32,272 nt of DNA from a virus (lineage: Duplodnaviria; Heunggongvirae; Uroviricota; Caudoviricetes), in IMG/VR virus record IMGVR_UViG_2737471827_000002, positions 1 through 32,272 of that record; one strand, 5' to 3'. A program made the position numbers and the translations under genes. Positions 17,423-18,512 of this stretch are shown here, piece after piece. The notes under the pieces were generated by a model. That model was not told the origin of the DNA. It worked only from the letters and a program-made list of their open reading frames with translations, and ran no database searches. Numbering within the stretch: position 1 is the stretch's first letter; every line of letters starts with the position of its first letter.

Positions 17423-17531
17423 ATCCCGCCCCGACAGACCTGTGCTACCGGAAAGAAAAAAGGCCATCAGCAAAACTCTGATGGCCTGAATCACCTTTAC
17501 CAGTCATGTATGAAAAAATACGCACAACCAA

Positions 17532-17560
17532 TTGACAATGATTATCATTTTCATTAAAAA
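17532..17560 (+). promoter_or_regulatory. Candidate sigma70 promoter (TTGACA, 17 nt, TAAAAA) facing away from holin
   Basis: TTGACA at 17532-17537 and TAAAAA at 17555-17560; followed by long hairpin plus T-tract at 17575-17662. Confidence 0.3.
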
Positions 17561-17887
17561 TACAGCGTAACATTCTTATTTCATGAAGAACCATACCCGC
17601 CAGCAACCTGAGTAGCAAAAGCTGTTCATCCCCCATATTTTTGCTGGCGGGTTCTTTTTTCTACTGCCCTCCTCCCCAGGAAAAGCATTTCATTCTTTTC
17701 TCATTAATCGTTACTGGAGAGAAGGCGGGAAAAAGCCAGCTCTTTGGCCCTAAATAACAGCATGGCTTCAGTCCATACAGAATCTGATTTTCCAGCTCAC
17801 ATAATAACCAGATGCTGCAGTTGCAAAATCTGGCAACATCGGATTATTATGCGCCTGTGAAAATTTCTTCACGTTTTATTCCTTGCC

Positions 17888-17916
17888 GCCCGTGCCTCCC
17901 AGCGCGGGCTTTTTTA
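17888..17916 (+). terminator. Candidate intrinsic terminator (plus strand)
   Basis: GCCCG...CGGGC stem followed by TTTTTT at 17910-17915. Confidence 0.4.
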
Positions 17917-17917
17917 T

Positions 17918-17945
17918 CCAAAAAATACCCCTCCGGAGAGGGGTA
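17918..17945 (-). terminator. Intrinsic terminator (minus strand) upstream of the lysis cassette
   Basis: Perfect hairpin TACCCCTC-CGGA-GAGGGGTA preceded on plus strand by AAAAAA (U-tract on minus-strand RNA). Confidence 0.6.
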
Positions 17946-18231
17946 TCATACAAGGGGATGACCATGATGCATGGTGCCGGGTGCCTCCCGGTGAGTCCGG
18001 CATCAGCATACAAACCCGCGATTATCCCAGAACTGACTGCTGATTCGCCCCGCCGCTTAGGGGGATTCACCATGCTTTTTTTTATTTACAAACTCTTCGC
18101 CAGACAAACAACCATTAACTGGCTGAATTGTGAGGTATTTCAATTTTTAGAAAACTGACCAACCTCCGCTTATACGCCGGGCATGGAGCGGATACAAAAA
18201 AGCCCCGCAAAAGCAGATCAGAAGGATTCGT

Positions 18232-18272
18232 TGTAAAAAAAGCTGTCAGATTATCGCGCTAATCTGACAGCT
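18232..18272 (-). terminator. Strong intrinsic terminator (minus strand) downstream of the methyltransferase gene
   Basis: 13-bp perfect stem AGCTGTCAGATTA/TAATCTGACAGCT with 6-nt loop; A7 run on plus strand gives U-tract on minus-strand RNA. Confidence 0.7.
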
Positions 18273-18512
18273 ACAGCAGGTATCCAAAAACATGGGTGGA
18301 AACAATAAGTGAGTTAAGAAGACACGGTGTCGGATTTTTACCGATGAGCCTTTGGCGTGGTCAACCGTGGCTCGCTCCCTTTAACTTTTGATGCTCATGA
18401 AAATGATGAAAATCCTTATTACATCATACCACATCAGCCCTGCTACATTGCAGGATGCACCGTGTTGTTACGGATTATACGTAACAGATGTCCCACTAAT
18501 AATTGAGTTAAT

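Follow-up and report, generated by a model that had tools for sequence, protein, structure and literature searches.

A candidate Fur-controlled small RNA gene in an RNA-rich slot upstream of the holin gene of a lambdoid prophage

Small RNAs (sRNAs) controlled by Fur are central to iron economy and virulence. To our knowledge, RyhB is the only one of them that is well established in Escherichia coli. This paper concerns the 1,090-bp non-coding gap (positions 17423-18512) upstream of the holin gene in the IMG/VR virus record IMGVR_UViG_2737471827_000002 (32,272 nt; the whole stretch is called the window below), and in particular a predicted Fur-repressed sRNA gene at 17532-17662 on the plus strand. 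The closest described systems are prophage sRNAs. PasA and PasC of enteropathogenic E. coli (EPEC) E2348/69 are validated Hfq-dependent prophage sRNAs (Pearl Mizrahi et al. 2021; Zhu, Shabalina & Storz 2026 preprint); they are encoded on the minus strand (PasA, 743499 to 743415; PasC, 1290909 to 1290832), with the esterase and holin genes on the plus strand (Pearl Mizrahi et al. 2021, Table S6). Convergent sRNA pairs have been described 3' of PR' at the lambdoid "moron" site, together with "anti-sRNAs" of 51-60 nt that are antisense to the late operon (Tree et al. 2014). STnc100 is an expressed prophage sRNA with 11 copies in strain EDL933, one of them confirmed by northern blot; in Shiga toxin-producing E. 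coli a copy follows the stx2 operon at a distance of 75 nt.

The gap in our window is best explained, we think with fair probability, as an sRNA-rich "moron" slot in the late operon of a lambdoid prophage, holding at least three small RNA genes: STnc100, a PapR-type RNA and the Fur-controlled candidate. Two of these RNAs are of known kinds. The third, a candidate sRNA with a Fur-bound promoter, is both widespread and unannotated, and the rest of the interval (STnc100, the PapR-type RNA and the stacked terminators) is ordinary among lambdoid prophages. An earlier note on this DNA, made from the sequence alone, had treated the interval as a non-coding spacer with a single RNA. It is indeed non-coding, but it also holds STnc100 on the holin strand and the PapR-type RNA on the other strand.

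The candidate begins with a sigma-70-type promoter on the plus strand (17532-17561; -35 TTGACA at 17532-17537, -10 TAAAAA/AAAAAT at 17555-17561). Our scan reads it as TTGACA (17532), an 18-nt spacer and AAAAAT (17561), scoring 10/12; this is the same site as the TTGACA-17-TAAAAA of the earlier note. The most informative feature had been overlooked there. A near-palindromic Fur box (17534-17552) overlaps the -35 element and the spacer, reading GAAAATGATAATCATTGTC on the minus strand (17/19 matches to the 19-mer consensus) and GACAATGATTATCATTTTC on the plus strand (16/19), that is, with 2-3 mismatches. A Fur box of this quality is expected 0.00 times, as judged from 100 shuffles. Downstream, fold and conservation define a predicted RNA at 17563-17662 (+), about 95 nt long (~17567-17661). 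Its 12-bp GC-rich stem (ACCCGCCAGCAA/TTGCTGGCGGGT) surrounds an inner hairpin of 8 bp together with a C-rich loop, UCAUCCCC, and is followed by UUCUUUUUUC. The long hairpin and T-tract that had been noticed here fold with -31.2 kcal/mol for 17563-17662, as against -16.2 +/- 2.8 kcal/mol for shuffled sequences (z = -5.4; 0/200 shuffles as good). More generally, each feature of the earlier note was recovered at its stated position or a few bases away, and all of them exceed chance.

In uropathogenic strain CFT073 the same module is present at 85% identity, with a Fur box that differs in one base from that of the window; its TTGACA lies at position 3440893 of NC_004431.1. A summit of the Fur chromatin immunoprecipitation sequencing (ChIP-seq) data for this strain falls at 3440893, with an amplitude of 3620 and assigned to the "c3597 transposase" (Banerjee et al. 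2020, Table S5A, PMC7157518). Because the summit coincides with the TTGACA, in vivo Fur occupancy is shown at this orthologous site in CFT073, not at the window itself. In Table S5A the peak tops those at entS/fepD (3485), fepA (3285), chuA (3245), cirA (3050) and entC (2860), and it is neither included in the expression tables nor mentioned in the main text of that study (PMC7157518). It is thus one of the strongest unexplained Fur sites in this urinary-tract strain. The same table has other strong Fur peaks at poorly annotated CFT073 island genes, c4561 (4333067, amplitude 1730) and alpA (1131856, amplitude 1845), which may hide further unannotated Fur targets.

In 123 E. coli genomes the gap is present over its full length at 95% identity, and the module 17452-17814 alone recurs in many more, at 84-91% identity. 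The RNA with its promoter is found in 1,427 of 5,426 complete E. coli genomes, about a quarter, with 642 places on plasmids; in PLSDB the module is present in 574 plasmids (E. coli 531, Klebsiella 21, Salmonella 17, Shigella 5). Carriers include CFT073, the ST131 strain EC958 and ColV-type plasmids. Many copies are relics without Q or lysis genes, often decayed and flanked by insertion sequences (IS). They adjoin papI in ATCC 25922 and CFT073, lie between papI and iucA in ST131 EC958, and on a ColV-type plasmid between an iss/Rz remnant and iroB. Across the diverged haplotypes identity is highest in the stem-loop and T-tract (0.93), followed by the promoter with the Fur box (0.88), the 5' part of the RNA (0.74) and the sequence after the T-tract (0.60). 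The -35 element is invariant in 7/7 haplotypes. Conservation of the hairpin among relatives, on which the earlier note had staked its reading, therefore does hold, the stem-loop and T-tract being the best-conserved block. A second conserved block of 85 bp (17730-17814; mean pairwise identity 0.88, against 0.60 in the preceding 67 nt) sits between the Fur-controlled RNA and the PapR-type RNA; neither an open reading frame (ORF) nor a clear structure was found in it, and homology to the plasmid and island relics stops at its end, 17814.

The slot itself has precedents in E2348/69. Besides PasA and PasC, prophage PP4 of this strain holds a third, unnamed copy of such an RNA (locus L006, 1610-1730, minus strand; NC_011601 ~1060610-1060725). 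Its promoter has a TTGACA overlapped by a Fur-like box, TTGACAATAATGATAATG (15/19 matches to the consensus), and is as far from the holin as that of the candidate. The published data place the 3' end of the PP4 RNA at 1060613-1060672 (minus), annotated within the coding sequence E2348C_1013; it drops 7.5-fold in the hfq mutant (log2 fold change -2.9), is always second in the chimeras from RNA interaction by ligation and sequencing (RIL-seq), and forms 263 chimeras with the entC 5' untranslated region (Pearl Mizrahi et al. 2021). A duplex of the PP4 RNA over the entC ribosome-binding site is predicted at -25.4 kcal/mol, with 0/200 shuffles as good in a windowed test. The PP4 RNA looks like an overlooked iron-linked sRNA. 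Of 56 classes of sequence ahead of this holin family, the window class and PP4 alone have a Fur box of >=15/19, and the antisense TTGACA-plus-terminator architecture only in the window class, PP4 and PasA. Prophage PP2 of E2348/69 has a second PasC-like terminator (L003, 2766-2900) with a TTGACA preceded by TTGATAATATAT, directly past the esterase stop and upstream of pasA, and may carry two tandem antisense sRNA genes.

Conservation, the Fur box, Fur binding in CFT073 and the EPEC sRNAs of the same slot make a plus-strand small RNA, divergent from the holin as the earlier note had proposed, the best reading of 17532-17662. In our estimate it is probable, as the best explanation of the whole, that this segment is a Fur-repressed sRNA gene of about 95 nt in a lambdoid moron slot. 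We infer its transcription start, termination, Hfq dependence, action in trans and targets, as well as read-through by Q-modified polymerase. With plentiful iron, Fe-Fur would occupy and block the promoter, as the binding at the CFT073 homologue suggests; under low iron, for instance inside a host, the promoter would be released and fire. The transcript would then stop at the 12-bp stem and U-tract to give the ~95-nt RNA, which may be an Hfq-type sRNA that targets mRNAs of the host or of islands in trans by way of conserved single-stranded stretches, namely the C-rich loop UCAUCCCC, the GCCAGCA arm or both. Action in trans with Hfq is suggested by the typical 3' module, the slot shared with PasA, PasC and the PP4 RNA, and survival of the module without a late operon.

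Several observations weigh against this reading. The 5' end (~17567) is estimated from the -10 element alone, and the terminator loop is unusually large (34 nt) and structured. The comparison with homologous loci that the earlier note proposed upheld the conservation of the stem, which is invariant, but not covariation: across 26 pairs there is no compensatory change and three variants break a pair, so that the structure rests on thermodynamics and conservation. The haplotypes are few and horizontally spread, and conservation may partly reflect recent common descent and hitch-hiking with virulence loci. In the sequenced-phage collection the module has 0 copies. Comparison of PasA and PasC with 17430-17860 by BLAST (word size 7) returned nothing, so homology is not demonstrable, and a covariance model built from six haplotypes of the candidate class (R1) missed PasA, PasC and the PP4 copy even at an E threshold of 10; over 85 sources its hits are confined to its own class, apart from weak ones in L057 and L054 that are unrelated terminators. 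Pairing of the candidate with entC is not significant (32/200 shuffles as good, windowed test). Because homology is not demonstrable and the entC pairing is not significant, we do not file the candidate as a member of the PasA/PasC family, although by analogy it would work like an sRNA of that slot under Fur control. No Rfam family matches the plus strand at the candidate RNA, and a search of both strands for RyhB (RF00057) was negative at E up to 10. A literature search, which included the sequence itself and whose coverage leaves out most subscription journals, returned no described Fur-regulated sRNA at this locus.

Could the promoter be a mere relic? It matches the promoter of stx1 at 22/25 positions, including an identical 16-mer, and might be the leftover of an stx1-type iron-regulated moron promoter whose cargo gene was lost, with the hairpin doing nothing more than stopping a stray transcript and the RNA functionless. 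The many copies in decayed, IS-flanked relics, the missing covariation and the non-significant entC pairing are what such a leftover would look like. However, conservation in the relics peaks in the RNA body (stem-loop and T-tract, 0.93), ahead of the promoter (0.88) and the flanks (0.60-0.80), validated sRNAs show the same architecture in the same slot, and the candidate promoter, unlike that of stx1, faces away from the late operon; we regard a relic as unlikely. We consider it somewhat less likely still that the RNA acts mainly in cis, by pairing with the late transcript or colliding with it at 140-240 nt ahead of the holin start, so that iron starvation would modulate lysis timing or expression. 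The RNA is by construction fully complementary to the late-operon leader, in intact prophages it adjoins the holin, and Fur binding would supply the link to iron. The retention of the module, its promoter and stem undamaged, by hundreds of plasmids and islands that lack Q, holin and lysozyme argues against a purely cis-antisense role, as do the lack of overlap with the holin ribosome-binding site and the late-strand terminator at 17487-17461 that separates the RNA from the holin.

Two further readings of the same segment have little to recommend them. The Fur box, which as a near-palindrome scores 17/19 on the minus strand, could together with a conserved block (17488-17524) serve an RNA on the holin strand that ends at the 17487-17461 terminator; identity is 0.80 for 17491-17524 and 0.87 for the terminator, and there are weak minus-strand Rfam matches to SgrS (24.9 bits, E = 2e-4) and PrrF (E = 1.2). 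Yet the scan found no minus-strand promoter, the required -10 position varies between haplotypes, both Rfam hits lie under their gathering scores, the fold reaches just z = -2.2, and the terminator stem is mismatched in relics. We give this arrangement a very small chance. The SgrS match is to the 3' part of SgrS (17456-17552, minus; a seed-like stretch and terminator; gathering score 37), stops at the terminator next to the holin and, with no promoter found, may be chance or a processed 3' fragment. RyhB, PrrF and SgrS were all rejected as readings of the segment, RyhB for want of any hit and the other two for the sub-threshold scores of their minus-strand hits. The slimmest prospect of all is a small-peptide gene, either leader or micropeptide, in the form of a 10-aa ORF, MKNHTRQQPE (ATG 17583-17585, TAG 17613-17615). 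Its ATG and TAG are present in 7/7 haplotypes, but it is not preceded by a Shine-Dalgarno sequence, half of it lies within the 12-bp stem, and the codon changes counted in the haplotype alignment are mostly non-synonymous (K/R, N/S/K, H/Y/F, P/S, E/K).

On the preferred reading, a Fur-repressed sRNA acting in trans, a wider proposal may be ventured, to which we give a little less than even weight. Pathogenic E. coli could have in the segment 17532-17662 a second Fur-repressed sRNA, spread horizontally and with no sequence relationship to RyhB. It would have arisen in the holin-proximal sRNA slot of lambdoid phages and been captured, without the phage, next to the pap, aerobactin and salmochelin loci of extraintestinal pathogenic E. 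coli islands and ColV plasmids; it would link iron starvation in the host to post-transcriptional control of host or virulence genes and explain the strong orphan Fur peak of CFT073. If so, the gene would add a mobile arm to the iron regulon, carried by roughly one in four complete E. coli genomes and by virulence plasmids of the ColV type, some of which are found in Salmonella and Klebsiella. The PasA/PasC slot upstream of phage holins would then hold further sRNA classes that BLAST-based surveys have missed, at least two of them with Fur boxes.

On the minus strand, 18104-17916 is a clear STnc100 family member. The gene, including its terminator at 17947-17924, matches Rfam RF02076 with 113.1 bits (E = 3e-24; gathering score 47) over the full length of the covariance model, 1-206 of 206. 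The copy is homologous to those of Shiga toxin (Stx) phage loci and of the ATCC 11775 locus. It lies on the late strand, as do Q, the methyltransferase and the holin, a layout shared with Sakai Sp5, the Stx2a phage and ATCC 11775. In Sakai Sp5, Rfam places STnc100 and AsxR tail to tail. STnc100 is presumably EcOnc27, the partner named by Tree et al. A second, degenerate STnc100-like element (18282-18500, minus; Rfam 29.3 bits against the same gathering score, E = 4e-4) is doubtful, its score lying below the cut-off and BLAST support being absent. BLAST of the PasA, PasB, PasC and PasD loci against the gap matched no more than the holin start and a 30-nt STnc100/PasD-like segment.

Facing STnc100 is the predicted PapR-type RNA (17857-17915, plus), called from the PapR alignment and the fold. 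It would belong to the anti-sRNA class, with a 5' hairpin followed by an AU-rich single strand (UUUUAUUCCUUGCC) and then the terminator, 17888-17909, with U6. A promoter-like site found by the scan, TTGCAA-18-TATTAT (17821-17850, plus), takes the place of the AsxR promoter of Sakai Sp5 (TTGCGC-18-TAAAAT) when the loci are aligned by inspection, and from this we predict an RNA of ~58 nt, 17857-17915, whose fold has z = -5.1. Its kinship is with PapR of uropathogenic E. coli UTI89 (Khandige et al. 2015). In UTI89, TCTCCCAGCGCGGGCTTTTTTT is part of the published primers for cloning and deleting PapR, of which the knock-out primer includes the STnc100 terminator CCCCTCTCCGGAGGGG as well; the primer sequences match 17868-17915 of the window and thus share the same 3' end. 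At the ATCC 11775 locus (L010), the 3'-terminal ~100 nt of PapR can be aligned with 17812-17915 of the window, including the AU-rich stretch and the terminator GCCCG..CGGGC with its U-run. Full-length PapR is absent: its 5' ~70 nt, its promoter and its mapped start (CGGGCUGAAG...) are missing, and homology begins near 17812-17818. The stretch of PapR that is predicted to pair with papI mRNA (~+74 to +96) is kept, and the predicted duplex with papI +75..+104 is -33.3 kcal/mol for the window and -29.0 kcal/mol for the reference PapR. Whole-length duplex predictions with papI and entC were uninformative, since long duplexes scored no better than shuffles. The same 3' module is carried by an EPEC RIL-seq sRNA candidate, E2348C_1409.E2348C_1408.IGR. 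The covariance models of AsxR (RF02703) and AgvB (RF02702) gave no hit in 17300-18700 at E up to 10, whereas the same search found AsxR in Sakai with 88 bits; we therefore call the RNA PapR-type and not AsxR. Its position, the promoter-like site and the predicted length of ~58 nt would fit an anti-sRNA of the AsxR/AgvB kind (51-60 nt). The plus-strand RNA converges on STnc100, an arrangement described by Tree et al. (2014), and ends 8 nt from the STnc100 terminator.

The opposed terminators that had been noticed in this part of the gap are thus present (plus strand, 17888-17909 followed by T6; minus strand, 17947-17924 followed by T-rich sequence). Both arms are real, but the pair is to be identified as the 3' ends of the convergent sRNA genes STnc100 and PapR-type RNA. 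Terminator-like sites are some nine-fold enriched around the gap, with 12 in 17200-18800 against 1.3 +/- 1.4 expected from shuffles. The strong minus-strand terminator of the earlier note is borne out at 18272-18241, 240 nt after the methyltransferase stop, with a 13-bp stem, T7 and a fold z of -4.6; it is identical in the E. coli relative TK3046 (0 substitutions in the comparison of 18218-18512), so that its conservation is uninformative. A fourth late-strand terminator, beyond the interval covered earlier, was found by the scan 38 nt before the holin ATG (17455-17487, minus; stem 17487-17461, GGCCATCAG/CTGATGGCC with T6), and equivalent terminators lie 37-55 nt before the holin in E2348/69 PP2 and PP4, in ATCC 11775 and in other upstream classes. 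A weak terminator at 18217-18204 belongs to a remnant (18185-18217, minus) of the sequence that follows the ileZ-argN-argO tRNA cluster in Stx phages. By BLAST, 18185-18214 matches sequence just past the argO tRNA in the Stx phage loci L153 and L154, and as the window has no tRNA, the cluster of related prophages has been lost here; the toxin or esterase genes of Stx phages are likewise absent.

A dedicated device of layered termination, as envisaged in the earlier note, does not follow from these terminators: the opposed pair, and probably the others too, are primarily the 3' ends of sRNA genes or remnants of lost genes. In a lysogen the late-strand terminators at 18272-18241, 17947-17924 and 17487-17461 may keep transcription from the lysis genes, and after induction Q-modified polymerase would read through them. 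Antiterminator Q (20992-21387, minus; Pfam PF06530, E = 2.5e-52) is the source of the terminator-resistant late transcription that needs to cross the sRNA island. As Q lies upstream on the same strand, read-through of the stacked late-strand terminators is a reasonable inference from the established lambda paradigm.

All genes around the gap in the ORF list are on the minus strand. The order of transcription is Q, a module of isrK, C4 and an ORF6N gene, the DNA methyltransferase, the gap, the class II holin, a DUF1327 gene, a SAR-type (signal-arrest-release) lysozyme and Rz. The upper boundary of the gap is the methyltransferase gene (18513-19574, minus; annotated as DNA-methyltransferase in relatives). 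The lower boundary is a class II (phage 21 S-type) holin of 71 aa with a dual start (17207-17422, minus; relatives annotate a 216-nt "class II holin family protein"). Its start is the ATG at 17422 (MYQMEKI...); a 95-aa ORF with a GTG start was rejected, because it would cross an intrinsic terminator and relatives annotate the 71-aa form. With the holin starting at 17422, the gap is longer than the roughly 870 bp given in the earlier note. We agree that it holds no convincing ORF or tRNA: the window is without tRNA, and the ORFs of 63, 65 and 91 aa that a protein-coding reading of the gap could draw on have no Pfam match. Some RefSeq relatives annotate "hypothetical proteins" at 17445-17636 (minus, 63 aa) and ~17964-18158 (plus, ~64 aa); these are probably spurious calls, since they overlap the predicted sRNA and STnc100 and lack a Pfam match. 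In E. coli MS20657 (L009, 3551-4725) the same gap follows a toxin pair, an ArtAB-like ADP-ribosyltransferase with a subtilase-family B subunit, which replaces the methyltransferase. The slot thus behaves as a swappable moron site.

Elsewhere in the window, isrK (20764-20951, minus; Rfam 66.9 bits) and the C4 antisense RNA (20147-20710, minus; 65.7 bits) lie directly downstream of Q. They are followed by a gene with an antirepressor-like ORF6N domain, the isrK/anti-repressor arrangement of Salmonella Gifsy-1, here within the late operon. A sok antitoxin RNA (24628-24803, minus; Rfam 112 bits) implies a type I toxin-antitoxin locus of the hok/sok type in the prophage. A second Fur-box-like site, GAACATGATAATTATTATC (14777-14795, 16/19), lies in the interval that separates Rz from the Nu1 terminase gene; a plus-strand ORF of 79 aa (14946-15185) begins ~150 nt downstream of it.

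How, then, does the Fur-controlled candidate compare with known regulators? Like PasA and PasC, it occupies the slot between the last moron gene and the class II holin, is oriented against the late operon and ends in an intrinsic terminator. It also shares with them the TTGACA -35, a distance of 110-120 nt from the -35 element to the T-tract and a stem built on GCCAGC/GCTGGC. The reported seed of PasA lies in this stem, the GCCAGCA arm of which is common to both RNAs. The candidate differs in having a Fur box, as the PasA and PasC promoters match the Fur consensus at 12/19 at most; in its larger, branched terminator hairpin; and in its distribution, mainly in islands of extraintestinal pathogenic E. 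coli and on ColV plasmids and not in EPEC or enterohaemorrhagic E. coli prophages. The iron-regulated stx1 promoter (VT1-Sakai) is also situated in the moron region of a lambdoid late operon, and its identity with the candidate promoter extends over the -35 element, the Fur box and the flanks. The common 16-mer, ATTATCATTTTCATTA, holds two shared departures from the Fur consensus. The stx1 promoter runs along the late operon and drives toxin genes, whereas the candidate promoter has the opposite orientation and is followed by only ~95 nt and a terminator. Common descent of the two promoters, as judged from this sequence likeness, is a lead and not proof. With RyhB the candidate shares a Fur box over the promoter, a length of ~90-95 nt, a Rho-independent terminator with a long U-tract and, as would be expected of it, induction by low iron. 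RyhB, however, belongs to the core genome, whereas the candidate, which has no Rfam RyhB match, is horizontally acquired and varies between strains.

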